Source: a virus (Duplodnaviria > Heunggongvirae > Uroviricota > Caudoviricetes). Taken from it: 38,464 nucleotides of DNA. Position numbers and translations under genes: made by a program. Below, piece after piece: positions 1,524 through 38,350 of the stretch. Positions within the stretch are counted from its first letter, which is position 1. Each line of letters starts with the position of its first letter. The stretch lies in the IMG/VR virus record IMGVR_UViG_2698536454_000007. The stretch is one strand, 5' to 3'. Below the pieces are notes generated by a model that did no database searches, was not told the origin of the DNA, and saw nothing but the letters and a program-made list of their open reading frames with translations.

Positions 1524-1742
1524 TTAACGCGGGTATGTAATCATTCTGGCAATGCTTAATGCCGCTGCTTTTTCCAGCCTGGTGATATCCTGCTCCAGAG
1601 CGGACAGATTTTCAGCCTGCTTAGCCCTGGCTTCATTGGCCCATTTCAGATCCTGCGCTGCATTAATTTTCTGGCGCATCCACTCATAAAGTTCATCATC
1701 GGTATAGTCTGGCGAGATGATGACGGGTTCTCGTTTCTGCAT
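1524..1742 (-). CDS. YdfC-like small prophage protein (72 aa)
   Basis: ATG at 1742 with AGGA Shine-Dalgarno 6 nt upstream; third gene of a tightly packed leftward operon; size and order match Qin ydfC. Confidence 0.6.
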   Translation of the reverse strand: MQKREPVIISPDYTDDELYEWMRQKINAAQDLKWANEARAKQAENLSALEQDITRLEKAAALSIARMITYPR

Positions 1743-1771
1743 ACTGATTCCTCGCGGTGCTGCTTCGCTTA

Positions 1772-1900
1772 TCAGCCGTTAGATTTTGCCGAGCTGGAAA
1801 GCGCCTGTTTAAACTCACTGAAGCTGAGAGCTTCTTCGCCTTCGGCAAGGCCTTCGAAGTATTCTTCGTAAGCCTTTTCCATGATTGTGTCGAAATCCAT
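1772..1900 (-). CDS. YdfB-like small acidic protein (42 aa)
   Basis: ATG at 1900, one base after the upstream gene's TGA stop (TGAtATG). Product MDFDTIMEKAYEEYFEGLAEGEEALSFSEFKQALSSSAKSNG. Below the 60-aa cutoff of the ORF track; found by manual translation. Confidence 0.55.
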   Translation of the reverse strand: MDFDTIMEKAYEEYFEGLAEGEEALSFSEFKQALSSSAKSNG

Positions 1901-1901
1901 A

Positions 1902-2057
1902 TCACTCACCTGAGTTTCTTTCCAGCCAGCGACGGGCACCATTTTCGGTTTTAAACGTTTTGCTTCTGGTATACGTCATCGCGGTAAACGTGCCGTCCTG
2001 GTTGGGAAACACGCCGCATACCAGAGATTCGTTGTTGCCAAGATCGATAGTATTCAT
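1902..2057 (-). CDS. YdfA-like small prophage protein (51 aa; the DUF1391 family name is recalled, not verified)
   Basis: ATG at 2057 with GAGG Shine-Dalgarno 5-6 nt upstream. Product MNTIDLGNNESLVCGVFPNQDGTFTAMTYTRSKTFKTENGARRWLERNSGE. First gene downstream of the operator palindrome. Confidence 0.6.
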   Translation of the reverse strand: MNTIDLGNNESLVCGVFPNQDGTFTAMTYTRSKTFKTENGARRWLERNSGE

Positions 2058-2145
2058 GCTGACCTCATTTCCCCTTAACGCCGGGGTAGCGGAACTGTTT
2101 GCTGAGAACACCGTGCGGTGTCTTGGTGGAGATTAATTTAGAATA

Positions 2146-2192
2146 ACCTAACAAATGTGGCAAGTATTTTTGTTAGATTGATCTAACAAAAA
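2146..2192. promoter_or_regulatory. Operator/promoter region of the leftward dicB-type operon: perfect palindrome TTGTTAGAT-TG-ATCTAACAA plus a CCTAACAAA half-site
   Basis: The 9-bp inverted repeat at 2171-2190 is seen directly; a related half-site lies at 2147-2155. It sits between the repressor gene's stop and the first operon gene. Confidence 0.55.
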
Positions 2193-2224
2193 GAGTGAGG
2201 GAATCTAAGTATCTGAAAGGAGTG

Positions 2225-2632
2225 TTATTTTATTGATTTGTTTTTACGTGCTTTAAGCATTTCTTCGAAGAGTTTATTGAAATTCTCTACTCTTGCGCGC
2301 ATTTCAGACAGTAAGGCTTCCTGCTCGGAGGAGGGAAGAGCATCGAATAATTCGATCAATTCTTTGTGGCTGGGAGTTAACTCGGTTTCCACATGAAGTT
2401 CTTGTGCTGGCACTGGTGCCTTGTCTTCGTCACCAAACATTAGCCATGTAGGCGAGCACTTCAGCGCATCAGCTAAAGCAAATAACCGCTTCCCGACCGG
2501 TTGGGTTTCGTCTCTTTCCCATTGTGAAATTGTGACGTGAGCTACCCCAGCGAGGCGTGCAGCTTCTCGTTGTGTTAGGCGTAATTCTTTTCGTCGTGCC
2601 AGAACTCGCTGGCCTAGGGTTCTTGTATCCAT
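2225..2632 (-). CDS. dicA: DicA-like prophage repressor, XRE-family HTH, 135 aa, no LexA-like cleavage domain
   Basis: N-terminal HTH (LTQREAARLAGVAHVTISQWERDETQP) and a C-terminal region ...LFALADALKCSPTWLMFGDEDK...ELIELFDALPSSEQEALLSEMRARVENFNKLFEEMLKAR that closely matches recalled DicA. Divergent from a Cro-like gene. No obvious Shine-Dalgarno upstream. Confidence 0.85.
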   Translation of the reverse strand: MDTRTLGQRVLARRKELRLTQREAARLAGVAHVTISQWERDETQPVGKRLFALADALKCSPTWLMFGDEDKAPVPAQELHVETELTPSHKELIELFDALPSSEQEALLSEMRARVENFNKLFEEMLKARKNKSIK

Positions 2633-2681
2633 AGTTAGGTAATTCTAATTTTTCTTGACTTAGGTATCCCGCGCACATTGC

Positions 2682-2699
2682 TGTTAGGAATATCTAACA
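2682..2699. promoter_or_regulatory. Operator in the divergent dicA/dicC intergenic region (TGTTAGG-AAT-ATCTAACA)
   Basis: Imperfect palindrome sharing the TGTTAG/CTAACA half-sites with the 2171-2190 operator; located between the divergent start codons at 2632 and 2713. Confidence 0.5.
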
Positions 2700-2712
2700 A
2701 GAGGGGGCTTTG

Positions 2713-2940
2713 ATGCTTAAAGTTGACGCAATTACTTTTTTTGGCAGCAAAACAAAACTTGCCAATGCCGCAGGAGTGAAACTGGCAAGTGTTGCTGCAT
2801 GGGGGGAACTGGTTCCTGAAGGTCGCGCGATGCGCCTGCAAGAGGCATCCGGCGGGGAACTTCAGTACGACCCCAAAGTTTATGACGAATATCGTAAGGC
2901 AAAGCGGGCGGGGCGGTTGAACAATGAAAATCACCCCTGA
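2713..2940 (+). CDS. dicC: DicC-like Cro-type regulator (75 aa)
   Basis: ATG at 2713 with GAGGGGG Shine-Dalgarno 5 nt upstream. Product MLKVDAITFFGSKTKLANAAGVKLASVAAWGELVPEGRAMRLQEASGGELQYDPKVYDEYRKAKRAGRLNNENHP resembles recalled DicC. The ORF-track entry at 2710 is a TTG-extended version. Confidence 0.75.
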   Translation: MLKVDAITFFGSKTKLANAAGVKLASVAAWGELVPEGRAMRLQEASGGELQYDPKVYDEYRKAKRAGRLNNENHP

Positions 2941-3445
2941 ACAGGTTTGTGAGGCTCTGGATGCCTGGGTATGCCGACCAGGAATGACACAGGAGCAGGC
3001 GACGATATTAATCACGGAAGCATTCTGGGCTCTGAAAGAACGCCCGAACATCGATGTTCAACGCGTCACGTTTAATGATGGCGAGGTTGATCAACGGGCG
3101 TTGGGCGTTAACCGGGTGAAGATATTCGAACGCTGGAAAGCTATCGACACCAGGGATAAGCGGGAAAAATTCACGGCGCTGATTCCGGCAATTATGGAGG
3201 CTATCCGGATCAGCGATTTCAGGTTGTATTGTGAAATTACTGACGGAAAAAGCATTACGTACATGATCGCCGGGTTAAACAAAGAATATGGTGATGTGGT
3301 GGAGTCCGGGCTGCTTTTTGCGGATCCATCTGTTGTGGAACGTGAGACTGACGAGCTTATAGAAAAAGCTATTGCTTTCAAGCATGCGTATCGTCAGCAA
3401 TACCAACAAAAAGCTGGATGGAATTATGAGCCTTCTTTTTGCTGA
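2924..3445 (+). CDS. YdaT-like early regulatory protein (173 aa); function tentative
   Basis: Second gene of the rightward operon, overlapping the Cro-like stop; position corresponds to ydaT after ydaS in Rac-type prophages. Weak Shine-Dalgarno. Confidence 0.45.
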   Translation: MKITPEQVCEALDAWVCRPGMTQEQATILITEAFWALKERPNIDVQRVTFNDGEVDQRALGVNRVKIFERWKAIDTRDKREKFTALIPAIMEAIRISDFRLYCEITDGKSITYMIAGLNKEYGDVVESGLLFADPSVVERETDELIEKAIAFKHAYRQQYQQKAGWNYEPSFC

Positions 3446-4391
3446 ACGCCCACTGGTTATAAACACACAGCTTGCGATGAAGATTGGCTTAAATGAAGCC
3501 ATTGTGTTGCAGCAGTTGCATTACTGGTTGAGAGATACCAGTTCCGGTATGGAATGTGACGGGGTTCGCTGGATTTATAACACAACAGAACAATGGCTGG
3601 AACAGTTCCCGTTCTGGTCAGAGTCAACGTTAAAACGCGCATTTGCAAGTCTGAAAACGCTGGGGCTTTTGCGTTGCGAAAAGCTCAACAAATCAAAGCG
3701 TGATATGACTAATTTTTACACGATTAATTACGAGAGTGAGCTTTTAGATGGTGGCAAAGTGAGCGAATCCATCAGGTCAAAATGCGCCGCTCCATCGGGT
3801 CAAAATGACACGATGGAAGAGGTCAAAATGGCACGCTCCATTGGTTCAAAACGACCCAATGTCATCGGGTCAAAATGGCCTGATGATCTTACAGAGAATA
3901 CAACAGAGATTACTACAGAGAATAAAAACACTTCTCGTCCGGAAGCTTCGCAACCGGACCCGCAGACGGCTGAACAGGATTTTTTAACCCGACACCCTGA
4001 CGCGGTTGTGTTCAGTGCGAAAAAACGCCAGTGGGGAAGTCAGGAAGATTTGGCGTGCGCACAGTGGATCTGGGGACGAATCGTGAGTCTTTACGAGCAG
4101 GCTGCCAGCGATGATGGCGAGATCACGCGACCGAAAGAACCAAACTGGACCGCATGGGCCAATGACGTGCGCACAATGCGGATGCTGGATGGCAGAAGCC
4201 ACAGACAAATTTGCGAAATGTTTGGTCGGGTACAGCGAGATCCATTCTGGGTAAAAAACATCATGAGCCCGTCAAAGCTTCGCGAAAAATGGGACGACCT
4301 GGTCATCCGCCTGGGGCGTTCACCTGTACAGTGTTGTGTGAATCATATTTCTGAACCGGATACCGAAATTCCGCCTGGTTTCAGGGGATAA
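3426..4391 (+). CDS. Replication initiator (replisome-organizer / O-like protein) with the origin iterons inside the gene
   Basis: N-terminal winged-helix-like region (LVINTQLAMKIGLNEAIVLQQLHYWL...) typical of phage replisome organizers; five direct repeats lie within its linker-coding region. The start is ambiguous (ATG 3426 versus ATG 3384 or TTG 3372). Confidence 0.75.
   Translation: MSLLFAERPLVINTQLAMKIGLNEAIVLQQLHYWLRDTSSGMECDGVRWIYNTTEQWLEQFPFWSESTLKRAFASLKTLGLLRCEKLNKSKRDMTNFYTINYESELLDGGKVSESIRSKCAAPSGQNDTMEEVKMARSIGSKRPNVIGSKWPDDLTENTTEITTENKNTSRPEASQPDPQTAEQDFLTRHPDAVVFSAKKRQWGSQEDLACAQWIWGRIVSLYEQAASDDGEITRPKEPNWTAWANDVRTMRMLDGRSHRQICEMFGRVQRDPFWVKNIMSPSKLREKWDDLVIRLGRSPVQCCVNHISEPDTEIPPGFRG
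3768..3877. repeat. Putative replication origin: five ~23-bp iterons (core GGTCAAAATG) followed by an A-rich repeated segment
   Basis: Direct repeats TCCATCAGGTCAAAATG (3768), TCCATCGGGTCAAAATG (3791), AGAGGTCAAAATG (3818), TCCATTGGTTCAAAACG (3837), GTCATCGGGTCAAAATG (3861), then ACAGAGAATA repeats at 3891-3925. Lambda likewise has its ori iterons inside O. Confidence 0.7.
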
Positions 4392-4431
4392 GTGGTGATT
4401 TTAGGGCATAAAGTAATGTTCAGGAGGACTT

Positions 4432-4839
4432 ATGGCAAAAGTATTTACACAGGAAGAGCGGGAAAAAATTAAAGGACAGGTGGTGGAACTCGTGCGCCAG
4501 AGCGGTCGTGAGACGTTACGGCAACTGGAAGCTAAAACAGGTGCGACAAGATATCTGATGAGCGTTCTTGCCAGAGAGCTGGTTGCCAGTGGTGATGTAT
4601 ATCACTCTGGCTATGGGGTGTTCCCGTCAGAACGGGCTCGTAAGGACTGGCAAAACGCCCGCAAAAAACTCTCGAGGGCAAAGGTGAAGAAACCTGTTGT
4701 GGTTGATCCGGGCCTTATCTGGACATTACCCGACGGAGAAATACGCCGCTACGACAGGCGTATGAACATAATCTGTCGCGAGTGCCGGAAGAGCGAAGTT
4801 ATGCAGCGTGTATTGGCGTTCTATCAGGGATATGCCTAG
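4432..4839 (+). CDS. Hypothetical protein (135 aa), basic, possibly DNA-binding
   Basis: Strong AGGAGG Shine-Dalgarno 6 nt before ATG 4432; base composition like the phage backbone; no family recognised. Confidence 0.6.
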   Translation: MAKVFTQEEREKIKGQVVELVRQSGRETLRQLEAKTGATRYLMSVLARELVASGDVYHSGYGVFPSERARKDWQNARKKLSRAKVKKPVVVDPGLIWTLPDGEIRRYDRRMNIICRECRKSEVMQRVLAFYQGYA

Positions 4840-5207
4840 AATTGTCACAGGTAATGAAATTAAAGAGTATTGGTTCGGATATGAATTGACATTTTCGCGG
4901 CACAGAGCTAAAAATAGCCTACTTGTTGGTTTTGTGTGAAAAGCAGACATTTTGAGGCTCAGGATTTGTTATCAAATAAGACCAATACTTATCTATATTA
5001 ATACACATTAAATACTGTGCAATACATTATTACATTTTATTAGATAAGCGATATTTAGGGAAAAGAAAAGTCATAGAAAACAGGCCGCTATTTGTTGTTG
5101 GATTTTATAGGCTATATCTAGATTATCTTGCCACTGCGGTCTCTGTTTACCTAACAGCTTGGGCTTCTTTGCATGCAAGTTTGTAATAACAAGAGTAATC
5201 AAACGGA

Positions 5208-6239
5208 ATGTCTATTAATCCTAAACTTAAGCGTATCGCGCGACGCTATCCAGCGTTATTCCAATATGAGTCCCCCTATATGGCAAGAAAATTAATAATA
5301 TTCGGCAACGGTCTCGGTATGGCTTTAGATCCTGCTCACTTCTCCTTAGACAGAGCGTTGGAAGAAATTTGGCATCGCCCCAATTTTTTAAAAGATATCC
5401 ACAAGCAACTTATCGAGCGTTGTCTTCAGCGGCAAGGTCCACCAGAAGGAGAACATGAGTTGGATACCCTTCACCAGGCTGTCACATATTGTAAAGCTCT
5501 TGCTCAAATTGGAGAGGGGAACGTGCATTGGCTTACTGAAGATGGACTAAACTTCCCCAAAATTACCGCCACTTATATTCACAAAGTTGCAACCAGGTTG
5601 CATAATTACGATAAAGGTTTGCCACAAAGATTCGAAAATGCGCTTGTGGAGTTTGTAAAGAACACACACTCACATATCGCGACATTAAACTATGACAAAT
5701 TATTATACAATTCATTCATAGATAATGATATATTCAACGGGTATGATGGGGTTTTAGTTGATGGGATGCTAAGCCACGGATTTTCCTCTGCAGCGCTCGA
5801 ACGGAAATACAATCGTAGGTTTGGTTATTATTTGCACTTGCATGGTTCACCACTATTTATTAATCAGCATGAAAATGTTTTAAAACTTTCACGCTCACAA
5901 CTTACTCTTGACATAGATGAACCTAGTGAGCATATAGTGTTAACTCATATAAAAAGAAAACCGTCAGTTATAGCAGCATCTAATGTTCTTTCTACGTACT
6001 GGGATTATTTGCAGTTTGCATTATTTGAATCAGAAGAAATAATATTGTTTGGTTACTCTGGTCTCGATATTCACCTTAACCTGCTTATTCGACCTTACCT
6101 AACCTCTAAGCCTTTAAGAGTAATTGAGTGGAGCGGTGCTGGTGAACAAAACGCTCGTGAGATATATTGGAAAAACCAGTTGAGACGGGAAGTTACTGTA
6201 ATTAGGTTGGATAACATCACTGATTTTATTGATTGGTAG
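5208..6239 (+). CDS. Standalone SIR2-like (sirtuin-fold, predicted NAD-binding) protein, 343 aa; candidate anti-phage effector
   Basis: Motifs in sirtuin order: Gly-rich IIFGNGLGMA (res ~31-40), TLNYDKLL (compare sirtuin TQNIDxL), HLHGS (catalytic-His HG motif), ILFGYSGLD (GYS/GTS motif). The gene and its flanks are visibly AT-rich relative to neighbours. Weak Shine-Dalgarno (ACGGA). Confidence 0.65.
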   Translation: MSINPKLKRIARRYPALFQYESPYMARKLIIFGNGLGMALDPAHFSLDRALEEIWHRPNFLKDIHKQLIERCLQRQGPPEGEHELDTLHQAVTYCKALAQIGEGNVHWLTEDGLNFPKITATYIHKVATRLHNYDKGLPQRFENALVEFVKNTHSHIATLNYDKLLYNSFIDNDIFNGYDGVLVDGMLSHGFSSAALERKYNRRFGYYLHLHGSPLFINQHENVLKLSRSQLTLDIDEPSEHIVLTHIKRKPSVIAASNVLSTYWDYLQFALFESEEIILFGYSGLDIHLNLLIRPYLTSKPLRVIEWSGAGEQNAREIYWKNQLRREVTVIRLDNITDFIDW

Positions 6240-6553
6240 CGCAATGCGAAGTTAAAGAGGCAGCCTCATATTTATCAGAGCTGGTGTACGTCCAATACAG
6301 GAGGTTATCGTGCTGGTTCTCAAATGCGCGCTGGCTATTGCGGCTGTAGTGGCAATTTATTGTCTTGCTATTGTTCTTATGGATCGCCTTTCTGATTGAT
6401 TTTATATTGGCGAGGTGACGGGAGTTAAGTAGAATTGCTGCGGGTGCTTGAGGCTGTCTGCCTCGGGCATGCCACCGTAAGGCAGACAGAGAAAAGCCCC
6501 AGTTAACATTACGCGTCCTGCAAGACGCTTAACATTAATCTGAGGCCCAATCT

Positions 6554-6766
6554 ATGCTTCACAAACGTAGGTTAGCCTCTTACGCGCCGAAAGGCAAGGA
6601 GAAGCAGGCTATGAAGCAGCAAAAGGCGATGTTAATCGCCCTGATCGTCATCTGTTTAACCGTCATAGTGACGGCACTGGTAACGAGGAAAGACCTCTGC
6701 GAGGTACGAATCCGAACCGGCCAGACGGAGGTCGCTGTCTTCACAGCTTACGAACCTGAGGAGTAA
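6554..6766 (+). CDS. mok: Mok-like reading frame, an in-frame N-terminal extension of hok (70 aa)
   Basis: ATG at 6554 with GAGG upstream; same frame and stop as hok, as in chromosomal mok/hok loci. Confidence 0.5.
   Translation: MLHKRRLASYAPKGKEKQAMKQQKAMLIALIVICLTVIVTALVTRKDLCEVRIRTGQTEVAVFTAYEPEE
6611..6766 (+). CDS. hok: Hok/Gef-family type I toxin (51 aa), HokD/RelF-like
   Basis: Product MKQQKAMLIALIVICLTVIVTALVTRKDLCEVRIRTGQTEVAVFTAYEPEE: a single transmembrane helix plus the conserved Hok C-terminal region; AGGAG upstream; fold-back stem (CTGTCTGCC...GGCAGACAG) in the 5' leader at 6457-6490. Confidence 0.85.
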   Translation: MKQQKAMLIALIVICLTVIVTALVTRKDLCEVRIRTGQTEVAVFTAYEPEE

Positions 6767-8642: not shown

Positions 8643-9002
8643 ATGCGTATAGAGTTTGTTTTGCCTTACCCGCCGACGGTGAACACCTACTGGCGACGTC
8701 GTGGCAGCACATATTTTGTGTCAAAAGCCGGTGAGCGTTATCGCCGGGATGTGGCACTTATTGTTCGCCAGCAGCGGCTGAAATTAAACCTGTCCGGAAG
8801 GCTGGCGATAAAGATTATTGCAGAGCCACCGGATAAGCGCCGCCGCGACCTGGACAATATCCTGAAGGCACCACTGGATGCGCTTACGCATGCCGGACTA
8901 CTTATAGACGACGAGCAGTTTGATGAAATCAATATTGTGCGCGGTCAGCTCGTTTCTGGTGGGCGGCTGGGCGTGAAGATTTACAAAATTGAAAGTGAGT
9001 GA
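8643..9002 (+). CDS. rusA: Holliday junction resolvase RusA
   Basis: 119 aa; motifs PPTVNTYW and RRRDLDNILKAPLDALT are characteristic of RusA; AAGAGG Shine-Dalgarno. Confidence 0.85.
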   Translation: MRIEFVLPYPPTVNTYWRRRGSTYFVSKAGERYRRDVALIVRQQRLKLNLSGRLAIKIIAEPPDKRRRDLDNILKAPLDALTHAGLLIDDEQFDEINIVRGQLVSGGRLGVKIYKIESE

Positions 9003-9010
9003 GCATAAAT

Positions 9011-9565
9011 ATGATATACCCGGAAATTACAGGCAAAAGCGGTGAGCATTTACGCCTGAAAACGCTGGAAAGTGTCTGGATCCAGGGGAAACTGCGTATG
9101 TGGGGGCGTTGGTCGTATATTGGCGACGGTAAGACGGGAAATATGTTCAACCAATTACTGATCTCTAAAAAGCTGACAAAAACGGCAATTAACGAGGCGC
9201 TCCGGAGGATGAAAAAAGCGGGTCTGGACAAACCTGAACTTGAGGCTTTTTTGCGGGATATGATCAACGGCAATCAAAAAAGCTGGCTGGCACATTGTAC
9301 CGATTCAGAGGCGTTAATAATCGACAGGGTTATTGGTGAAGTACTGGCAGGTTATCCCGGGCTGCTCAATGTTCTGAGTCAGCGTTATGTGGGGCGGGGG
9401 ATGACTAAGCGCAAAATGGCTGAACTGCTGAATGATGCACATCCGGAATGGAGTTTAAGAACCTGTGAAAGACGCATTGAGCATTGGCTAAAGGTGGCAG
9501 AATTTATTTTGTACAAACCAATGGTTATGGCTTTTGGTATAGAGAAAAAAGTTATTGCTTTTTGA
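9011..9565 (+). CDS. Late-gene antiterminator Q-like protein
   Basis: Position (after rusA, immediately before an intrinsic terminator and the late-operon cargo and lysis genes) is the canonical Q slot; family assignment is by synteny. Alternative GTG start at 8999. Confidence 0.55.
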   Translation: MIYPEITGKSGEHLRLKTLESVWIQGKLRMWGRWSYIGDGKTGNMFNQLLISKKLTKTAINEALRRMKKAGLDKPELEAFLRDMINGNQKSWLAHCTDSEALIIDRVIGEVLAGYPGLLNVLSQRYVGRGMTKRKMAELLNDAHPEWSLRTCERRIEHWLKVAEFILYKPMVMAFGIEKKVIAF

Positions 9566-9642
9566 CGTAAAAACTGCTTCAATTCCGGTAAGCTTCGCAA
9601 AGCTGTACCGCGAGGCGAATAGCAGACATGGACATTTGAAAG

Positions 9643-9667
9643 AGCCCGCTTTTTGCGGGTTTTTTTA
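9643..9667 (+). terminator. Intrinsic terminator downstream of Q (tR'-like); the late promoter presumably lies in 9566-9640
   Basis: GCCCGC-TTTTT-GCGGG hairpin followed by a run of 7 T. The promoter itself is not resolved. Confidence 0.65.
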
Positions 9668-9987
9668 TGACTGAAAAACGGCACGGGGCGTTAAACGCGC
9701 TGGTGGTTGCTAATACCGGTCTTTCAACTTGCTGGCTTTTTCGACAAGAGTTATTGGTATGTCACGTTAACCGGAAAATGGAAAAAGGCATGCTAAAACA
9801 GCAGGATATGACCGAAACCGCCAGAGTGGTGTTTAATGAATTAAGCGTCACCGAACCGGCGACCGCCGGGGAAATTGCGCAGAACACTTATCTTTCACGC
9901 GAACGCTGCCAGTTAATACTGACCCAGCTTGTTATGGCGGGTCTGGCAGATTATCAGTTCGGTTGTTACAGACGCCTTCCTCAGTGA
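9667..9987 (+). CDS. Small putative winged-helix DNA-binding protein; start codon uncertain (9667, 9778 or 9790)
   Basis: C-terminal part ATAGEIAQNTYLSRERCQLILTQLVMAGLA looks like an HTH; none of the candidate starts has a good Shine-Dalgarno. Confidence 0.35.
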   Translation: MTEKRHGALNALVVANTGLSTCWLFRQELLVCHVNRKMEKGMLKQQDMTETARVVFNELSVTEPATAGEIAQNTYLSRERCQLILTQLVMAGLADYQFGCYRRLPQ

Positions 9988-10137
9988 AGGCTTTTTTATT
10001 TGTGGTAATGGGCGGCTGGTGGGTGTTAGCGGCACCTGCCAGCCATCTGCTCATGCGTTGGGGTCACAAGCAAACCTCAGGCCCATCTGCTTTGCGCAAA
10101 AGCGGTATGAGCCTATCAGAGAAGTGCTTATTGATCT

Positions 10138-11196
10138 ATGGCTAATACTGTAAAAATATCCAGTTGTGAGTTAATCAACGCTGATTGCCTGGAATTTATC
10201 CAGACCTTACCGGAAAACTCTGTCGATCTGATAGTCACAGACCCGCCATACTTTAAAGTGAAGCCCGAGGGCTGGGATAACCAGTGGAAGGGCGACGATG
10301 ATTACCTGAAGTGGCTGGACCAGTGTCTGGCGCAGTTCTGGCGGGTGCTGAAACCTGCCGGAAGTCTTTACCTGTTCTGTGGTCATCGCCTGGCATCTGA
10401 TATCGAAATCATGATGCGTGAACGCTTCAGTGTGCTGAACCATATTATCTGGGCGAAGCCGTCCGGACGCTGGAACGGATGCAACAAGGAAAGCCTGCGG
10501 GCGTATTTCCCCGCCACAGAGCGCATTCTGTTCGCGGAACATTATCAGGGGCCGTATCGTCCGAAAGATGCCGGGTATGCGGCGAAGGGCAGTGCACTGA
10601 AACAGCATGTGATGGCCCCGCTGATTTCTTACTTTCGTGATGCGCGCGCGGCCCTGGGGATAACGGCAAAACAGATTGCAGATGCCACAGGAAAGAAAAA
10701 CATGGTGTCGCACTGGTTCAGTGCCAGTCAGTGGCAGCTACCGAACGAAAGCGATTATCTGAAATTACAGTCGCTGTTTGCCCGGGTGGCAGAAGAGAAA
10801 CATCAGCGGGGAGAACTGGAAAAGTCCCATTACCAACTGGTCAGCACATACAGTGAGCTGAACCGGCAGTATATGGAACTGCTGAGTGAATATAAGCATC
10901 TGCGGCGGTATTTTGGCGTGACGGTGCAGGTGCCGTATACCGATGTGTGGACGCATAAACCGGTGCAGTTCTATCCCGGGAAACATCCGTGCGAAAAACC
11001 GGCAGAAATGCTGCAGCAGATAATCAGCGCTAGCAGTCGTCCGGGTGACCTGATTGCAGATTTTTTCATGGGGTCGGGTTCGACAGTGAAAGCGGCACTG
11101 GCGCTCGGGCGTCGTGCAATTGGCGTTGAGCTGGAGACTGAACGTTTTGAGCAGACGGTTCGGGAAGTACAGGATTTAGTCAGCCAGAACGGATGA
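10138..11196 (+). CDS. Orphan DNA N6-adenine methyltransferase, beta class (DPPY before FxGxG)
   Basis: Motif IV VTDPPY near the N-terminus and motif I FFMGSGST near the C-terminus; no endonuclease gene adjacent. Confidence 0.85.
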   Translation: MANTVKISSCELINADCLEFIQTLPENSVDLIVTDPPYFKVKPEGWDNQWKGDDDYLKWLDQCLAQFWRVLKPAGSLYLFCGHRLASDIEIMMRERFSVLNHIIWAKPSGRWNGCNKESLRAYFPATERILFAEHYQGPYRPKDAGYAAKGSALKQHVMAPLISYFRDARAALGITAKQIADATGKKNMVSHWFSASQWQLPNESDYLKLQSLFARVAEEKHQRGELEKSHYQLVSTYSELNRQYMELLSEYKHLRRYFGVTVQVPYTDVWTHKPVQFYPGKHPCEKPAEMLQQIISASSRPGDLIADFFMGSGSTVKAALALGRRAIGVELETERFEQTVREVQDLVSQNG

Positions 11197-11236
11197 TATT
11201 GAAGAATTAATTACGCGTCGTTATTATGCGGCTCCC

Positions 11237-11312
11237 GGCCCTTTAGCTCAGTGGTGAGAGCGAGCGACTCATAATCGCCAGGTCGCTGGTTCAAATCCAG
11301 CAAGGGCCACCA
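11237..11312 (+). tRNA. ileZ: tRNA with CAU anticodon (Met or lysidine-modified Ile2; ileZ-like)
   Basis: Cloverleaf: acceptor GGCCCTT/AAGGGCC, D-arm AGCTCAGTGGTGAGAGC, anticodon loop CTCATAA, T-arm GGTTCAAATCC, 3' CCA. Confidence 0.85.
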
Positions 11313-11319
11313 TCACATA

Positions 11320-11396
11320 CCGCTATTAGCTCATCAGGAAAGAGCGCCAGCCTTCGAAGCTGGCTGCGCGGGGTTCAAGTCCCCGATGGCGGTCCA
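11320..11396 (+). tRNA. argN: tRNA-Arg (anticodon UCG)
   Basis: Acceptor CCGCTAT/ATGGCGG, anticodon stem-loop GCCAG-CCTTCGAA-CTGGC, T-arm GGTTCAAGTCC, CCA end. Confidence 0.85.
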
Positions 11397-11409
11397 TTAT
11401 CTGCATCAT

Positions 11410-11486
11410 GCGTTGTTAGCTCAGCCGGACAGAGCAATTGCCTTCTAAGCAATCGGTCACTGGTTCGAATCCAGTACAACGCGCCA
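11410..11486 (+). tRNA. argO: tRNA-Arg (anticodon UCU, reads AGA)
   Basis: Acceptor GCGTTGT/ACAACGC, anticodon loop CCTTCTAAG, T-arm GGTTCGAATCC, CCA end. Confidence 0.85.
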
Positions 11487-11502
11487 CACTTATTTTCCCT
11501 GG

Positions 11503-11529
11503 CTCGCTTTTGCGGGCTTTTTTTTAAAT
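11503..11529 (+). terminator. Terminator after the tRNA cluster
   Basis: CTCGC-TTTT-GCGGG hairpin followed by CTTTTTTTTT. Confidence 0.6.
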
Positions 11530-11974
11530 GTCTCACAATTCAGACGGTTGACAGTTGTCTGTTTTGCGGGGAGTTTGTTAAAAGAAACTGGCATGGTGAA
11601 TCCCCCTGTGCGGAGGGGCAATCAGCGAGTAGGTATATGGGATAATCGCGGATTCAGGTGCTGGTACTGAATTCACCGGGAGGCACCCGGCACCATGCAA
11701 TGGCACATAGCGCCACTCTCCAGCCCCTCTCCGGAGGGGCTTTCTTATGGACAAAAAAAGCCCGCGCTGGGAGACGCGGGCGGCAAGGAATAAACAACAA
11801 AACGTGAAGTAATATTTCAGCTGGCGAATAATATCCGACAGTAATCACTCTGCGCAATAGCGCGGCCTTTTTCGTATTGCGGGCTGTTGTCTCTCTTCTG
11901 CCATTGTCCTGTAACTTCCGGACTTCAGCCCGCTCCTCATTTTACTCACAATATTATCCCGGCCGGGAGGATTC

Positions 11975-13837
11975 ATGGCATTTAAACACTATGATGTTGT
12001 CAGGGCGGTATCGCCGTCAGACCTTGCTGATGCACTTGCTCAAAAAATTCGTGAAGGATGGCAACCATACGGCGGGCCGTTTTCTTCGTATACGGATGAT
12101 GGCGCAGCACTTATTCAGGCGATTGTCGCAGAAGGTGATGTGGTCGTCAGTGGTGCAACTGAGCCGGAGTGGTACTACGTCATCGTACTGGCCGGGCAGT
12201 CTAATGCCATGGCTTACGGTGAAGGGCTTCCGCTTCCGGATTCATACGATGCGCCCCATCCGCGCATTAAGCAACTGGCCCGTCGTAACACAGTGACTCC
12301 CGGTGGTGAAGTATGCGTATTTAACGACATCATTCCTGCTGACCATTGTCTGCATGATGTTCAGGATATGAGTACGATTAATCATCCCCGGGCTGACCTG
12401 AGCAAAGGGCAGTACGGCTGTGTCGGACAGGGCTTACATATTGCCAAAAAACTGCTTCCGTATATCCCTAATAATGCGGGGATCCTGCTGGTACCATGCT
12501 GTCGTGGTGGTTCGGCATTCACCCAGGGCACGGAGGGGACATTCAGCGAGTCCACGGGGGCCAGTCAGGATTCGGCTCGCTGGGGAGTGGGTAAGCCGTT
12601 ATATCAGGATCTGCTTTTCCGCACGAAGGCAGCATTGCAGAAAAACCCGAAAAACGTTTTGCTGGCGATATGCTGGATGCAGGGGGAATTCGATATGACG
12701 AATGCCAGTTACGCCCAGCAGCCAGCAGCATTTCTTGCAATGGTACAGCAGTTCCGTGCTGACCTTGCCGGGCTGGCGGCGCAGTGTCACGGTGGAAGTC
12801 CGGCATCAGTCCCCTGGATTTGTGGCGACACGACATACGCGTGGAAACAAGAACACGGTACGCAATATGAAGTGGTATATGGTGCATATAAAGGTAAAGA
12901 ATCCCAGCAGATTTATTTTGTTCCCTTTATGACCGATGGTAGCGGAGTTAATACACCGACAAACAACCCGTCAGAAGATCCTGATATTGTCGGGTCTGGT
13001 TATTACGGTTCGGCATCCCGAACGAACAAAAACTGGGTATCATCAAATCGCCCGACGCATTTCAGCTCATGGGCGCGTCGTGGCATTATTCCCGATCGTA
13101 TGGCAACCGCTATTCTGAACGCAGCCGGGCGCACCTCAGCCTTCATTAGTGGTAAGGCACCGGAAATCAAACCCTCGCCCGGCGGCGACACGCCATCGGG
13201 GCCGTCTGAAGATGCATCCATACGCACAATCTCCCTGTTGCCGACAGCCGGAGACGCTGCTGCGCAGGGCTGGAGCATTAAGAATGGCGGAATTCAGTTG
13301 TCAGATGGTGTATTTAAGATCACCAAGCAGAGCAATAAAGCCTGGTCCCTGACGCGCCCGGTGGATGACGCAGTCTCCCTGCTGACACGGGGTGGCAGAC
13401 TGAGCTGTAAGTTTCGCCTGTCAGGCGCACTGACCAACAACCAGTTCGGTCTGGGAATTTATCTGTATACCGATGTAGCGTTACCTGACGTCGTGGCGAT
13501 GACCGGGACTGGTAACCCGTTCCTGATGTCGTTCTTCACCCAGACCACAGACGGCAAACTGAATCTGATGCATCACAAGAAAGCAGGAAACACAAAGTTG
13601 GGCGAGTTCGGGAATTACAGTAACGACTGGCAGACGCTGGAGCTGGTGTTCACCGCCGGCAGTGCCACGGTTGCTCCGAAACTGAATGGAGTGGCTGGCC
13701 CGGCATTCCAGGTCATAAAAGACAGTCTGACAGTGGGACTAAATGCACTGACGCTGACGGATATTACCAAAAATGCAACGTATGGCGTTGAGATAGAAAG
13801 TCTGGTGCTGGAGATAAATGCACCGGCATCATCATAA
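11975..13837 (+). CDS. nanS: Prophage NanS-p-type sialate O-acetylesterase (YjhS family), 620 aa
   Basis: SGNH/SASA signature [14 protein letters not shown] after an N-terminal DUF1737-like region; GGGAGG Shine-Dalgarno; occupies the slot just downstream of stxAB in Stx phages. Confidence 0.85.
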
Positions 13838-16851: not shown

Positions 16852-17166
16852 ATGCTACATGATCACGTGGCAGAATGTCTGGAGAAAAAAGGACTGTACC
16901 GGAGAGCAGCTGAACGATGGGCAAAAGTGATGGTACAGCTAAGTGATGACCAGAAAAGAAAAGTGGCGGCACAGAAACGAGCAGAGTGTTTGCGTAAGGC
17001 GCGCCGGACTCCGGTTTCACCGGTGAACCTGACCGAAATAAAACAAGCGGTCAACAGACTACATTCTGAGTTGGGAATGGGATTTGAAGAGCGGCGGGTA
17101 TTCCGACGATATAAAGGGACAGGAGAACAGAATACGTCCGGAAACGCGCGGTCAAAAAAATGCTAA
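16852..17166 (+). CDS. PerC-family (Pch-like) transcriptional activator, 104 aa
   Basis: GGAGG Shine-Dalgarno 6 nt before ATG; N-terminal motif ECLEKKGLYRRAAERWAKVM fits the PerC family signature as recalled; preceded by a long AT/GT-rich tract. Confidence 0.55.
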   Translation: MLHDHVAECLEKKGLYRRAAERWAKVMVQLSDDQKRKVAAQKRAECLRKARRTPVSPVNLTEIKQAVNRLHSELGMGFEERRVFRRYKGTGEQNTSGNARSKKC

Positions 17167-32008: not shown

Positions 32009-32752
32009 ATGACACAGACAGAATCAGCGATTCTGGCGCATGCCCGGCGGTGTGTGCCTGCGGAGTCGTGCGGCTTCGTGGTGAGAACGCCGGAGGGGGA
32101 GCGGTATATCCCTTGTGTGAATATCTCTGCAGAGCCGGAGGCGTATTTTCGTATTGCACCGGAAGACTGGCTGCGGGCAGAGATGCAGGGGGAGATTGTG
32201 GCACTGGTCCACAGTCATCCCGGTGGTCTGCCCTGGCTGAGCGAGGCCGACCGGCGGCTGCAGATAAAAAGTGCACTGTCCTGGTGGCTGGTCTGCCGGG
32301 GGGAAATTCATAAATTCCGCTGTGTGCCACATCTGACAGGACGGCGCTTTGAGCACGGGGTGACGGACTGTTACACGCTGTTCCGGGATGCCTACCATCT
32401 GGCGGGAATTGATATGCCGGATTTTGAGCGTGAGGATGACTGGTGGCGCAACGGTCAGAACCTGTACCTGGACAATATGGAGGCGACTGGTTTTTACAGG
32501 ATTTCCCTGCCTTCCGCACAGCCTGGCGATATCCTGCTGTGCTGCTTTGGCGCATCGGTGGCCAATCATGCCGCCATATACTGCGGCAACGGTGAGCTGC
32601 TTCACCATCTGCCTGAACAACTGAGTAAACGGGAGAGGTATTCCGAAAAATGGCAACGACGAACGCATTCAGCCTGGCGTCACCGCCACTGGCACGTATC
32701 TGCCTTCACGGGGATTTACAACGATTTGGCCGCCGCCTCAGCCTGTATGTGA
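32009..32752 (+). CDS. K: Tail assembly protein K (JAB/MPN plus NlpC/P60-like)
   Basis: HSHP motif (VALVHSHPGG) of the JAB/MPN fold and C-terminal Cys/His region; the 3' end overlaps I by about 100 nt in another frame. Confidence 0.8.
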   Translation: MTQTESAILAHARRCVPAESCGFVVRTPEGERYIPCVNISAEPEAYFRIAPEDWLRAEMQGEIVALVHSHPGGLPWLSEADRRLQIKSALSWWLVCRGEIHKFRCVPHLTGRRFEHGVTDCYTLFRDAYHLAGIDMPDFEREDDWWRNGQNLYLDNMEATGFYRISLPSAQPGDILLCCFGASVANHAAIYCGNGELLHHLPEQLSKRERYSEKWQRRTHSAWRHRHWHVSAFTGIYNDLAAASACM

Positions 32753-33330
32753 ACACGGCAGCGGAAGCCATCCGTGCCCTGTCGATGCAGATGCCGGGAT
32801 TCCGCCGTCAGATGAACGAAGGCTGGTACCAGATACGTATTCGCGGTGAGGACACGGCACCGGAGGCGGTGTACGCCCGTCTTCACGAACAACTGGGTGA
32901 GGGAACGGTCATCCACATTGTGCCGCGACTGGCCGGGGCCGGAAAGGGTGGACTGCAGATTGTGCTGGGGGCGGCAGCCATCGTGGGCTCTTTCTTCACT
33001 GCCGGGGCATCAATGGCGTTATGGGGTTCAGCCCTGGCAGCCGGTGGTTTTTCTGCCACCACGATGCTGTTTTCACTGGGGGCCAGCATGATACTGGGTG
33101 GTGTGGCTCAGATGCTTGCCCCGAAGGCAAAAACACCGGATTACCGCGCAACGGATAACGGCAGACAGAACACGTATTTTTCCTCACTGGACAACATGAT
33201 TGCCCAGGGTAACCCGATGCCGGTGCCTTACGGGGAAATGCTGGTTGGCTCCCGCCGTATATCCCAGGACATCAGTACCCGTGATGAAGGCGGGGGCGGA
33301 AAGGTCGTGGTTATCGGGCGGCAGGCATAA
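32650..33330 (+). CDS. I: Tail assembly protein I
   Basis: 226 aa; ubiquitin-like N-terminal region and Gly/Ala-rich hydrophobic C-terminus; GGAGAGG Shine-Dalgarno. Confidence 0.85.
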   Translation: MATTNAFSLASPPLARICLHGDLQRFGRRLSLYVNTAAEAIRALSMQMPGFRRQMNEGWYQIRIRGEDTAPEAVYARLHEQLGEGTVIHIVPRLAGAGKGGLQIVLGAAAIVGSFFTAGASMALWGSALAAGGFSATTMLFSLGASMILGGVAQMLAPKAKTPDYRATDNGRQNTYFSSLDNMIAQGNPMPVPYGEMLVGSRRISQDISTRDEGGGGKVVVIGRQA

Positions 33331-33487
33331 AAGCGAAAAAATCCCGCAGTGCTCACGGACAGGAACTGCGGGAGCGTTACGAAGATTGAGTGTAAGGAAT
33401 TATTCTTATGTCACGACAAAAACATTAACTCAGAGAGGGAGGATGTGCCGTTCTTTTCAGGGAGAAAGGATTTATCGTCCTGAGGAA

Positions 33488-33515
33488 TAAAGGTAAGGGG
33501 CCCGCCCCTTACCTG
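33488..33515. terminator. Bidirectional terminator between convergent I and sodC
   Basis: GGTAAGGGGC-CCGCCCCTTACC hairpin flanked by A/T-rich sequence. Confidence 0.6.
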
Positions 33516-33520
33516 ACTGA

Positions 33521-34048
33521 TTATTGAATGATGCCGCAGGCCATTCTCGCACCACCACCGCCCAGGGGCTCCGGATGGTCATGATGGTTATCACCGCCAG
33601 CATGAAGCATGAGAGAACGCCCTTTAATCTCTTTTAATGAGTTCAGTCTCGGGGCCAGGACCGGGTAGTTCGCTTTTCCGTCATGCGTCACGAACAGCGC
33701 AGGGAGGTCGCCCAGGTGTCCATCCGGAGACCAGGGGCCAAGATGTTTGCCGGTGTTTTTCGGGTCAAAGTGACCGCCAGCCGATAATGCTGCGACCGGT
33801 TTTCCGTCTTTCAGTGCCGGGGCGCAATTTCCTTTTTCGTGCACATGAAAACCATGAATGCCTTCAGACAGAGAGTGAAGGGCTGGTGTGAACAGCAGAC
33901 CGTAGGGGGTCTCCTGAATGGTTATTTTTCCAATGCTGACTTCTTTTCCGTCAGCACTGACAAGGTTCATTGGGACTTCCTGTTCTGCTGCGTATCCGCA
34001 TGATGCTGCTGTCAGCATGGCAATGGCAGCAATGATTTTACATTTCAT
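33521..34048 (-). CDS. sodC: Periplasmic Cu,Zn superoxide dismutase (SodC), prophage moron
   Basis: Signal peptide [20 protein letters not shown]; copper/zinc ligand motifs [36 protein letters not shown]; GAGGG Shine-Dalgarno before ATG 34048. The ORF-track entry is a long artefactual N-terminal extension. Confidence 0.85.
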
Positions 34049-34181
34049 AAAACCCTCATTAATTCCGTTAACAGACTGAGCTTGCTGGTTACAGGGTAAC
34101 AAACAGCGTTCTGATGATATCGCGCAATAGCTGTGCAATATCCTATCACTGCGATTAATAATACCAATTGAGAGGAACATT

Positions 34182-37100
34182 ATGGGCAAAGGTGGCGGCA
34201 GGGCGCACACGCCTCGAGAGGCGAAGGATAATCTCAAATCCACGCAGATGATGAGTGTGATTGATGCGATTGGTGAGGGACCGATAGAAGGCCCGGTGAA
34301 GGGGCTGCAGAGTATCCTGGTGAACAAACCCCCGCTGACGGACACGGACGGCAATCCTGTGATACACGGTGTGACCGCGGTCTGGCGCGCCGGGGAGCAG
34401 GAGCAGACACCACCGGAAGGCTTTGAGTCCTCCGGAGCTGAAACCGGACTGGGCGTGGAAGTGACGAAGGCAAAGCCGGTAACGCGCACCATTACATCCG
34501 CGAACATTGACCGCCTGCGGGTCACCTTCGGGGTGCAGTCACTGTTGGAGACCACCTCAAAGGGCGACCGTAATCCCTCTTCTGTCCGACTGCTGATTCA
34601 GTTGCAGCGTAACGGTAACTGGGTGACGGAAAAGGATGTCACCATTAACGGCAAGACCACCTCACAGTACCTGGCGTCGGTGATTCTGGAGAATCTGCCT
34701 GAGCGGCCCTTTAACATCCGGATGGTCCGGGAGACAGCGGACAGCACCTCGGACCAGCTGCAGAATAAGACGCTCTGGTCGTCATACACCGAAATCATCG
34801 ATGTGAAACAGTGCTACCCGAACACGGCGATTGTGGGGCTGCAGGTGGATGCGGAGCAGTTTGGCGGTCAGCAGATGACGGTGAACTACCATATCCGAGG
34901 TCGCATCATCCAGGTGCCGTCAAACTATGACCCGGAAAAACGCACGTACAGCGGCATCTGGGACGGCAGCCTGAAACCGGCATACAGCAACAACCCGGCC
35001 TGGTGCCTGTGGGACATGCTGACTCACCCGCGCTACGGCATGGGAAAACGTCTGGTGGCGGCGGATGTTGACAAGTGGGCGCTGTATGCCATCGGGCAGT
35101 ACTGCGACCAGACGGTCCCGGATGGTTTCGGGGGCACAGAGCCGCGGATGACCTTTAATGCGTACCTGTCACAACAGCGTAAGGCATGGGATGTGCTCAG
35201 TGATTTCTGCTCGGCGATGCGCTGTATGCCGGTATGGAACGGCCAGACGCTGACGTTCGTTCAGGACCGCCCGTCGGATGTGGTGTGGCCGTACACCAAC
35301 TGCGATGTGGTGGTGGATGATAACGGCGTGGGGTTTCGCTACAGCTTCAGCGCCCTGAAGGACCGCCACACGGCGGTGGAGGTGAATTACACCGACCCGC
35401 AGAACGGCTGGCAGACCTCCACGGAACTGGTGGAAGACCCGGAAGCCATACTGCGCTACGGGCGCAACCTGCTGAAGATGGATGCGTTCGGTTGCACCAG
35501 TCGCGGTCAGGCCCACCGTGCCGGGCTGTGGGTGATAAAGACCGGACTGCTGGAAACGCAGACGGTGGATTTCACGCTCGGGTCACAGGGGCTGCGTCAC
35601 ACACCCGGTGACATTATTGAAATCTGTGATAACGACTATGCCGGGACCATGACCGGCGGACGTATCCTGTCCATCGATGCCGCCAGCCGCACCCTGACAC
35701 TGGACCGTGAGGTGACCCTGCCGGAGACAGGTGCCGCCACGGTGAACCTGATTAACGGCAGCGGTAAGCCGGTGAGCGTGGCCATCACTGCACACCCCGC
35801 GCCGGACCGGATACAGGTCAGCACCCTGCCTGATGGTGTGGAGACATACGGTGTATGGGGACTCTCCCTGCCGTCACTGCGTCGTCGCCTGTTCCGCTGT
35901 GTCTCCATCCGGGAAAACACGGACGGCACCTTTGCCATCACGGCGGTGCAGCACGTACCGGAAAAAGAAGCCATTGTGGATAACGGGGCCAGCTTTGAGC
36001 CACTGTCCGGTTCGCTGAACAGCGTCATCCCGCCGGCTGTGCAGCACCTGACGGTGGAGGTGAGCGCGGCTGACGGTCAGTATCTGGCACAGGCGAAATG
36101 GGACACGCCGCGGGTGGTGAAGGGTGTGCGCTTCAGTCTGCGCCTGACCAACGGAAGCGGAGAAGACAGCCGTCTGGTGACCACCGCCATCACTGCGGAT
36201 ACAGAGCATCGTTTCAGTGGTCTGCCGCTCGGGGAATACACCCTGACAGTCAGGGCAATTAACAGGTATGGCCAGCAGGGCGAACCGGCCACCACCACCT
36301 TCCGGATTAACGCGCCAGCAAAACCCGCCACCATTGAACTGACGCCGGGGTATTTTCAGATAACGGCGGTCCCGCGTCTTGCGGTGTATGACCCGACGGT
36401 ACAGTTTGAGTTCTGGTTTTCGGAGGCAAAAATCGCAGACACATCTCAGGTGGAAACCTCTGCCCGTTATCTGGGGACCGGCAGTCAGTGGAGTGTATCC
36501 GGCCCGCACATTAAGCCCGGGAAGGATTTCTGGTTTTACGTGCGCAGCGTCAACCTGGTGGGGAAATCTGCGTTTGTGGAAGTCAGCGGGCAGCCCAGCA
36601 ATGATGGTGAAGGGTATCTGGAATTTTTCCGGGAAAAAATAGGAAAACTGCATCTGGCTCAGGGGCTATGGGAGCTGATAGACAACAGCCAGCTTGCGGA
36701 TGAGATGGCGGAGATGAAGACCACCATCACCGAAACCCGCAATGAAATCACACAGACGGTCAGTAAAACGCTGGAAGACCAGAGCGCCACCATTCAGCAG
36801 ATACAGCGCGTGCAGAAGGACACAAATGATGACCTGGCTGCGCTGTACATGCTGAAGGTTCAAAAAACGAAAGACGGCATTCCCTATGTGGCCGGGATTG
36901 GTGCAGGGATTGAGGATACTGATGGCCAGCCACTGAGCAACATACTGCTGCTGGCTGACCGTATCGCGATGATAAATCCGGAGAGCGGCAACAGCACTCC
37001 GTTATTTGTGGCGCAGGGGAATCAGCTGTTCATGAACGACGTGTTCCTGAAGCGTCTGTTTGCGGCGAGTATCACGTCATCCGGCAACCCCCCGACGTTT

Positions 37101-37658
37101 TCCCTGACGCCGGAAGGGAAGCTGACAGCCAGGAACGCGGATATCAGCGGAGCAATTACCGCGAATACCGGCACGCTCAATAATGTCACCATTAACGAGA
37201 ACTGTGTCATCAGAGGGAAACTGTCTGCAAACCAGATTGAAGGCGACCTGGTGAAGACGGTGGGGAAAGCCTTTCCCCGGAATAACAGTTATGCCAGCGG
37301 GACGGTAACCGTCACAGTTTACGATGACCAGGGCTTCGACCGGCAGATTATCATTCCCCCGGTGCTGTTTCGCGGGACGAAACACCAGAATTTCAACAGC
37401 CCGAATCAGCAGTCGTACTGGTATTCCACCTGTAAGCTGCAGGTGCTGAAGAACGGGGTTGAGATTTTCCATGAACCGGCAACGGATGTCAGCCGGGTGT
37501 TCTCATCGGTGATAGATATGCCGGCAGGGCGGGGTCATGTCACCCTGACGTTTAATGTGTCGTCGGCCGGTGCGAACAACTGGACGCCGACAACGTACAT
37601 CAGTGATTTACTGGTTGTGGTCATGAAAAAATCCACGGCAGGGATCAGTATCAGCTGA
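34182..37658 (+). CDS. J: Tail tip / host-specificity protein J
   Basis: 1158 aa; position and size as lambda J; GAGAGGAA Shine-Dalgarno. Confidence 0.9.
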
Positions 37659-37670
37659 CGGTTTATTAAC

Positions 37671-37703
37671 CCGGACGGGCACCTCAGGAGGTGCCTTTTT
37701 TAT
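37671..37703 (+). terminator. Terminator after J
   Basis: GGCACCTC-AG-GAGGTGCC hairpin followed by TTTTTTATT. Confidence 0.6.
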
Positions 37704-37726
37704 TGACTGAAAACAAAGAGGTAATC

Positions 37727-38350
37727 ATGCGGCATTTATACGCAACGATATTATTGTTTACTACCCTGCTGGCAGGAATTGCCTTTCCTGCACAGGCTGA
37801 AAGCGGACACGGTGCATTTTCCGTGGGATATGCTCAGGTTCACCCGGGCGGCGTACCGGCATTGTCCGGTACCGGTGCGCGTGCAGGTGATTTAAAAGGG
37901 ATTAATGTGAAATACCGTTATGAGTTCACGGATCACCTGGGCGGCATTGTCGCGCTGAGTTATGCATCGGTGAAGAAAAGTGACACGATGAAGACGGGTG
38001 AAAATACCTTCCATTATGAAAGCCTGCGCGGTCGTTATGTCAGTCTGATGGCCGGCCCTGTCTGGCAGCTCAGTGAGCGGGTCAGTCTCTATGGCATGGC
38101 CGGGATGGCGTACACCCGCTGGTCTGACAGTGTTCAGGATTACCGGCGTGATGAAGTGAAACCGGGGTATGTGAAGGAGACCACCACCGCCAGTGATGGT
38201 CATACTGCGCGTCATCTGTCGCCGGCCTGGAATGCCGGGATTCAGTTCAGTCCCGTAGAGACGGTGGTTATTGACCTTGCTTATGAAGGTTCCGGCAGTG
38301 GCGACTGGCGCACTGACGGTTTCATCGTGGGTGTCGGCTATAAATTCTGA
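37727..38350 (+). CDS. lom: Lom-like outer membrane protein (Ail/Lom/OmpX beta-barrel family)
   Basis: Signal peptide MRHLYATILLFTTLLAGIAFPAQA; beta-strand-rich body ending ...GVGYKF (C-terminal aromatic); AAGAGG Shine-Dalgarno. Confidence 0.8.
   Translation: MRHLYATILLFTTLLAGIAFPAQAESGHGAFSVGYAQVHPGGVPALSGTGARAGDLKGINVKYRYEFTDHLGGIVALSYASVKKSDTMKTGENTFHYESLRGRYVSLMAGPVWQLSERVSLYGMAGMAYTRWSDSVQDYRRDEVKPGYVKETTTASDGHTARHLSPAWNAGIQFSPVETVVIDLAYEGSGSGDWRTDGFIVGVGYKF

Follow-up and report, generated by a model that had tools for sequence, protein, structure and literature searches.

Bacterial SodC proteins, the Cu,Zn superoxide dismutases, are extracytoplasmic enzymes. The described members closest to the gene treated here are the chromosomally encoded SodC of Escherichia coli (b1646), the Salmonella enzymes SodCI and SodCIII (STM0924) from prophages Gifsy-2 and Fels-1, respectively, and, above all, the prophage-encoded SodC-F1 and SodC-F2 of E. 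coli O157:H7. SodC-F1 was purified by D'Orazio et al. (2008; PMC2569942) and exhibited a specific activity of 19,380 U/mg in the pyrogallol method vs. 6,290 U/mg for chromosomal SodC. The protein behaved as a dimer of ~30.6 kDa in gel filtration, proved resistant to proteinase K and EDTA and had a Tm of 78–87 C (PMC2569942). Upon experimental fractionation it was recovered in soluble periplasmic as well as membrane fractions and in both soluble and detergent phases, i.e., it is partly lipid-anchored, and LipoP recognized two alternative processing sites in the leader, one for signal peptidase I between residues 20 and 21 and the other, the lipobox AASC, for signal peptidase II (PMC2569942).

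With regard to expression, SodC-F1 is formed in the logarithmic phase and under anaerobiosis, and a lacZ fusion to a 299-bp promoter fragment established that sodC-F1 is RpoS-independent, while epitope-tagged SodC-F was detected in uninduced cultures of O157:H7 with a peak in the stationary phase (PMC2569942). Deletion mutants lacking sodC suffered increased killing by H2O2, the sensitivity of a triple sodC mutant being no greater than that of the single mutants (PMC2569942). [quoted passage not shown] C at nucleotide 335, resulting in a leucine in F1 and a proline in F2 (PMC2569942).

The DNA analyzed here, referred to as the window, is a stretch of 38,464 nucleotides assigned to a virus of the Caudoviricetes (IMG/VR record IMGVR_UViG_2698536454_000007). 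From the letters of the sequence and a list of open reading frames, it had been proposed (the original prediction) that the tail gene cluster harbors, on the opposite strand, a complete gene for a periplasmic Cu,Zn superoxide dismutase.

Identity and Properties of the sodC Gene

The sodC coding sequence extends over positions 33521–34048 of the window on the minus strand. According to the open reading frame listing and the raw sequence, it runs from an ATG at 34048 to a TAA at 33521–33523 and specifies 175 amino acids, so that the coordinates of the original prediction are matched exactly. A Shine-Dalgarno sequence, GAGGG, is located on the same strand 4 bases 5' of the start codon (34053–34057). 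A longer frame starting from a GTG at 34555 (344 amino acids), which resulted from mechanical open reading frame calling, was rejected because all homologues begin at the methionine encoded at 34048, where GAGGG and the start of the signal peptide are found as well; the extension is antisense to gene J. The product of 236 amino acids annotated in some O157:H7 records was rejected along with this longer frame.

Residues 1–20 (33989–34048, minus strand) have the features of a signal peptide, namely lysines at positions 2 and 4, a hydrophobic core from I5 to A15 (11 residues, mean Kyte-Doolittle value of 2.5) and the sequence G18-Y19-A20|A21 with small residues at positions −3 and −1 of the putative cleavage site. 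Cleavage by signal peptidase I between A20 and A21 is predicted to yield a mature protein of 155 residues with the N-terminus AEQ. Residues 14–17, AASC, constitute a possible lipobox with Cys17. As far as such features can indicate, the N-terminal export signal of bacterial SodC is present, in line with the published LipoP and fractionation results (PMC2569942).

Assignment to the protein family is supported by matches to Pfam PF00080 (Sod_Cu; E = 3.9e-32, 111.9 bits with a curated cut-off of 28.9 bits, profile positions 3–133 of 133) and to the NCBIfam SodC equivalog NF007628 (218.4 bits with a curated cut-off of 165 bits, profile positions 2–172 of 172 and thus full length), the former being the check that had been suggested along with the original prediction. 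In addition, 24 chains of solved bacterial SodC structures match with E-values from 8.8e-63 to 2.3e-48. In an alignment that included chromosomal SodC of strain K-12, SodCI from Gifsy-2 and SodCIII from Fels-1, residues H68, H70, H93, H102, H111, D114, H149, C75, C171 and R168 are invariant. As is established for this protein family, H68, H70, H93 and H149 are the copper ligands and H93, H102, H111 and D114 the zinc ligands, with H93 bridging the two metals, C75 and C171 forming the intrasubunit disulfide and R168 serving as the active-site arginine. The metal-binding histidines, the loss of which would have spoken against the prediction, are therefore all retained, and profiles, alignment and leader features concur in the presence of a complete sodC with signal peptide and metal-ligand motifs.

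The encoded protein is identical to RefSeq entry WP_000649829.1 and to BCI49756.1. It is one residue apart from the copy in strain EDL933 (WP_000649830.1), with Leu112 in the window and Pro112 in EDL933, and other O157:H7 entries likewise differ from it only by a proline at residue 112. On the nucleotide level, position 335 of the gene is T (codon CTG) in the window and C in the EDL933 copy of the Pro-allele, which is the sole difference between these two sequences from window position 33200 to 34328. On the basis of T at nucleotide 335, and hence Leu112, the window therefore encodes SodC-F1. The exact protein occurs on at least 1000 contigs in a large protein collection, where it is labelled SodC by the sources. 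Judged by its sequence, the gene represents the characterized prophage allele SodC-F1 of O157:H7 in intact form. Accordingly, gene, protein, prophage location and biochemistry have been known since 2008, down to the exact allele, and activity, dimeric state, localization, regulation and H2O2 phenotype are those published for the identical protein (PMC2569942). A search for later work on sodC-F1 in a limited set of literature returned nothing beyond this study (D'Orazio et al., 2008; PMC2569942).

Anatomy of the Cassette Between Genes I and J

Upstream in the direction of the plus strand, sodC is flanked by the tail assembly gene I (Lambda_tail_I; 32650–33330, plus strand), for which PGAP gives a shorter version of 582 bp in related genomes, and downstream by gene J for the tail tip and host specificity protein (GpJ domains; 34182–37658, plus strand). 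Residing on the minus strand between these two plus-strand genes, sodC is convergent with I and divergent from J. Insertion between I and J in convergent orientation with I, as originally proposed, is thus confirmed by the domains of the flanking genes, by orientation and by comparison with phage JLK-2012, which possesses I and J and lacks sodC. Homology to JLK-2012 reaches through I up to window position 33436 with 95% identity and resumes at the ATG of J at position 34182 with 94% identity. In the phage, 132 unrelated bp take the place of the intervening 745 bp, which we term the sodC cassette (33437–34181, no strand assigned). The cassette also stands out by a GC content of 0.50 (minimum 0.45), genes I and J having values of 0.60 and 0.58, respectively.

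Six bases after the sodC stop codon, terminator scan and folding revealed a hairpin resembling an intrinsic terminator (33491–33514, minus strand), with a 10-bp stem containing six G-C pairs, a 4-nt loop and a folding energy of −19 kcal/mol (z = −3.2 on the minus strand and z = −2.6 on the plus strand). On the minus strand the stem is followed by the tail TTATTCCTCA (TTATTCC), and it is on this strand only that the scan called a terminator. On the plus strand the stem forms as well, but it is followed by GACTGATTATTG, which does not contain a T-run, and the element is not called. The original prediction of a bidirectional terminator flanking sodC is therefore not upheld. A second terminator-like hairpin on the minus strand, with the tail ATTTTTTCGCTTTTAT, is situated at 33333–33359, directly past the stop codon of I and thus outside the cassette, and is retained in the sodC-less phage JLK-2012.

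This minus-strand hairpin at the I stop codon has a long T-run, and its counterpart in JLK-2012 is found at approximately 1535–1560 of the phage segment compared. The spacer between I and J of this phage also contains a plus-strand hairpin with a T-run (GCAGGCACCCGGTGAGGTGCCTG TTGTTTTTG). In phages of this type, terminator-like elements are conserved at the I-J junction even where no cassette is present.

A consensus sigma-70 promoter was found on neither strand between 33200 and 34300 at the standard threshold. A relaxed scan returned a weak candidate, TTGGTA-16 nt-TGaTAGGAT (34140–34167, minus strand), with 8 of 12 matches and a TG extension, which does not reach the cut-off of the consensus scan and is put forward as putative. 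The evidence for a sodC promoter comes from the literature. The 299 bp upstream of the sodC start codon differ from those of the EDL933 copy by a single base, at position 34329, and the published 299-bp upstream fragment, which has one mismatch to the window, drove expression of lacZ (PMC2569942). No RNA family was detected in or beside the cassette with Rfam at gathering thresholds. Taken together, the comparison with an empty site, the lower GC content and the minus-strand terminator fit a phage moron.

Distribution of the Cassette

Among 5,426 complete E. coli genomes, 547 contain the cassette, in up to five copies per genome. Of 549 records, 542 show an identity of at least 99%, among them O157:H7, O55:H7, O111, O103 and O145, and wherever the annotation of matches was examined, the cassette had a tail assembly protein gene on one side and gpJ on the other. 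I/J flanks matching those of the window are present in 1,739 E. coli genomes, about 1,200 of which have the flanks only and no cassette. In the phage collection the same holds true for 118 of 120 matching records; the remaining two, both Stx2a-converting phages, carry the cassette, with the annotation "sodC: copper/zinc-superoxide dismutase" for a gene that has the tail assembly and host specificity genes as its neighbors. A divergent allele is present in E. coli strain cM8a, again between I and J, with 80% nucleotide identity, 34 amino acid differences and intact ligands.

Genes for related proteins also occur on conjugative IncF-type plasmids of E. coli, with 85–87% protein identity to the prophage allele. 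On these plasmids, e.g., CP099096.1 (positions 5001–5528 of the segment compared), sodC has IS66-family genes on both sides and no phage context. The plasmid variant has a tyrosine instead of Cys17 and is thus devoid of the lipobox cysteine.

Prophage Context

The further genes that had been listed as host-fitness cargo, lom, nanS-p and a PerC-like gene, are all backed by domain matches in the window: Ail/Lom at 37691–38350, PerC at 16852–17166 and a nanS-p-like esterase with DUF1737, SASA and DUF6645 domains at 11975–13837. Tail gene K was identified in addition to I, J and lom. Further features comprise the antiterminator gene Q (DUF1133/antitermQ domain match, 8999–9565), a type II-like DNA methylase (PADLOC MTase_II, E = 2.8e-165; 10138–11196), three tRNAs, Met(CAT), Arg(TCG) and Arg(TCT), at 11237–11486, and the small RNA STnc100 (Rfam; 11562–11752). 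The tRNA with the anticodon CAT is annotated as tRNA-Ile in a related genome. From 8999 to 13837, the window has the layout known from Stx phages downstream of Q, without stx. The distance from the tRNAs to the esterase gene is only ~490 bp, leaving no room for stx.

A prophage of strain 602687, integrated beside a tRNA-Ser gene and mtfA, shares 99.9% identity with the late region of the window (13500–38464). Past the tail fiber genes, the prophage of strain 602687 carries nleB2, nleC (truncated), nleH (frameshifted) and nleF, which correspond to positions 1–4500 of the retrieved segment; the window ends before that region.

In the early region, an open reading frame for 343 amino acids (5208–6239, plus strand) is located between a DUF977 gene (4432–4839) and hok/sok. 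Its product matches the SIR2_2 domain of Pfam (E = 1e-5) and, weakly, the PADLOC entries Aga_SIR2, PDC-S21 and SIR2 (E ~4e-6 to 4e-4). In the same position, the prophage of strain 602687 encodes a SMEK-domain protein and a SAM methyltransferase instead. This looks like a variable cargo position, possibly for anti-phage defence. Rfam matches at gathering score to the sok antitoxin RNA of the hok/sok module (6442–6616, plus strand, 116 bits) and to the DicF antisense RNA (1131–1182, minus strand, 72.5 bits) identify the left end of the window as an early region of the Qin/dicB type.

Discussion

We consider it very probable that the open reading frame at 33521–34048 is a prophage sodC, namely sodC-F1, that forms a moron-type cassette at the I-J junction of a lambdoid prophage without stx, and that it functions along the following lines. 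Transcription would start from a promoter of its own, the position of which we infer to be in the ~130 bp between the sodC start codon and the start of J or just inside J, would proceed opposite to the late operon and would stop at the hairpin six bases past the stop codon. The precursor would be exported by the Sec pathway and its leader cut by signal peptidase I after Ala20, giving rise to a soluble periplasmic enzyme of 155 residues; alternatively, cleavage by signal peptidase II at Cys17 would generate a lipid-anchored fraction. The mature protein would bind copper via H68, H70, H93 and H149 and zinc via H93, H102, H111 and D114, would be stabilized by the disulfide between C75 and C171 and, as a stable dimer, would dismutate periplasmic superoxide. 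In this way, and without a need for RpoS, the lysogen would be protected from reactive oxygen of exogenous or periplasmic origin, a benefit in vivo that we infer. The original prediction had gone further and attached a contribution to oxidative-burst resistance in pathogenic enterobacteria. Resistance to H2O2 does apply to the E. coli allele, for which the evidence consists of in-vitro killing by H2O2 and relative accumulation in Caco-2 cells (PMC2569942). A virulence role in animals, on the other hand, has been established for Salmonella SodCI and not for the E. coli allele, according to the literature cited in PMC2569942.

Other functions have to be weighed against the one just outlined. Inactive SOD-like proteins do exist among the weaker PDB matches of the open reading frame, i.e., YojM of B. 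subtilis (E ~1e-12) and domain II of CCS, and the product could in principle be a copper-binding or chaperone-like protein of this kind without dismutase activity, or the gene a silent remnant. We regard this as extremely improbable, given that the copper and zinc ligands, the arginine and the disulfide are all kept, that the score lies above the cut-off of the SodC equivalog and that the cassette is conserved with at least 99% identity in 542 records; as the purified identical protein had three times the activity of chromosomal SodC (PMC2569942), this alternative is effectively refuted by published activity. The placement of sodC on the opposite strand inside the late operon, which implies that late transcription must cross the gene, and the conservation of the slot across phages of E. 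coli and Salmonella could be taken to mean that sodC serves the phage rather than the lysogen, for instance through protection of the envelope in the lytic cycle or through antisense modulation of J. Such a role appears very unlikely in view of the expression in uninduced lysogens with its stationary-phase peak (PMC2569942) and of the occurrence of an 85% identical sodC on IncF plasmids between IS66 copies, where a phage context is lacking.

A further alternative bears on the origin of the cassette alone and leaves the function of sodC as outlined: the gene could have been passed on vertically in the I-J position for a long time, and phages lacking sodC would then have arisen by its loss or replacement. 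Fels-1 sodCIII in the same slot and orientation would agree with this, as would the divergent cM8a allele between I and J and the fact that SodC differs from its Fels-1 counterpart about as much as the tail proteins do (60% amino acid identity for SodC, 62% for J, 69% for I, 70% for L and 75% for K). However, the cassette has a GC content of 0.50 vs. 0.58–0.60 in the tail genes and a terminator of its own, Gifsy-2 sodCI occupies another slot, and the majority of genomes with the flanks, ~1,200 of 1,739, are devoid of the cassette. When the DNA of the cassette and its flanks was compared with Fels-1 and Gifsy-2, coding regions alone aligned (65–76%) and the intergenic parts did not, such that a common origin of the cassettes is not demonstrable that way. 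Moreover, SodC-F is equally far (59–60%) from chromosomal SodC, SodCI and SodCIII, and no special kinship with Fels-1 is visible; for the same reason, the co-divergence of SodC with the tail proteins is suggestive but not discriminating. The similar divergence of SodC and tail proteins, which is a matter of sequence comparison, allows long residence between I and J but does not prove it, and all in all we judge vertical descent in this position unlikely. Somewhat less likely still is a more far-reaching proposal, which builds on the shared orientation of sodC at the I-J junction in E. coli (two alleles with 80% nucleotide identity) and in Salmonella Fels-1. By this, the junction would have served since ancient times as a conserved cargo site in the lambdoid tail modules of enterobacteria, with sodC co-diverging and its antisense placement being functional. 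Q-antiterminated late transcription across the cassette would then switch sodC off in lytic growth, and the tandem minus-strand terminators at 33491–33514 and 33333–33359 would keep sodC transcripts of the lysogen out of I.

With sodC-F1 as a moron-type gene for the lysogen, which is the reading we prefer, the annotation characterizes the window as an EHEC/EPEC-type lambdoid prophage whose host-fitness cargo comprises sodC, lom, a homologue of PerC and a nanS-p-like esterase. It also implies that the allele present specifies the more active, more stable and partly membrane-anchored enzyme and not the housekeeping SodC. The discovery value is small, as sodC has already been annotated automatically by pipelines in hundreds of genomes.

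Comparison With Known Systems

Chromosomal SodC of E. coli (b1646) belongs to the same family, has the same ligands and is likewise periplasmic. The two proteins share 59% amino acid identity, with a gap of one residue in the loop after H102, and the chromosomal enzyme differs in being monomeric, RpoS-dependent, fully soluble, less active and less stable (PMC2569942). Gifsy-2 SodCI resembles the protein from the window in being encoded by a prophage gene that lies among tail genes but runs opposite to them and in the presence of a cysteine in the c-region of its signal peptide, and it is also dimeric and protease-resistant with a similar expression pattern (PMC2569942). Here, amino acid identity amounts to 59%, and the slot is bordered by a Lom homologue and L instead of by I and J. 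In the case of Fels-1 SodCIII (STM0924), the prophage gene is found in the same I-J slot on the strand opposite to the tail genes and encodes a protein with conserved ligands, the identity being 60% for amino acids and ~70% for nucleotides in the coding region. Differences lie in the unrelated intergenic DNA, in a gap between I and sodC that is shorter in Fels-1 and in a signal peptide without cysteine.

By far the closest match is provided by SodC-F1/SodC-F2 of O157:H7 from prophages CP-933R and CP-933V (PMC2569942), the F1 allele with Leu112 having the very amino acid sequence encoded in the window. Several O157:H7 genomes contain the 745-bp cassette with 100% identity, and its position between I and J as well as its orientation are alike. 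The difference from the SodC-F prophages of O157:H7 lies in the carrier only, which here is a lambdoid prophage without stx, the J gene of which deviates from an EDL933 copy at ~3% of positions.
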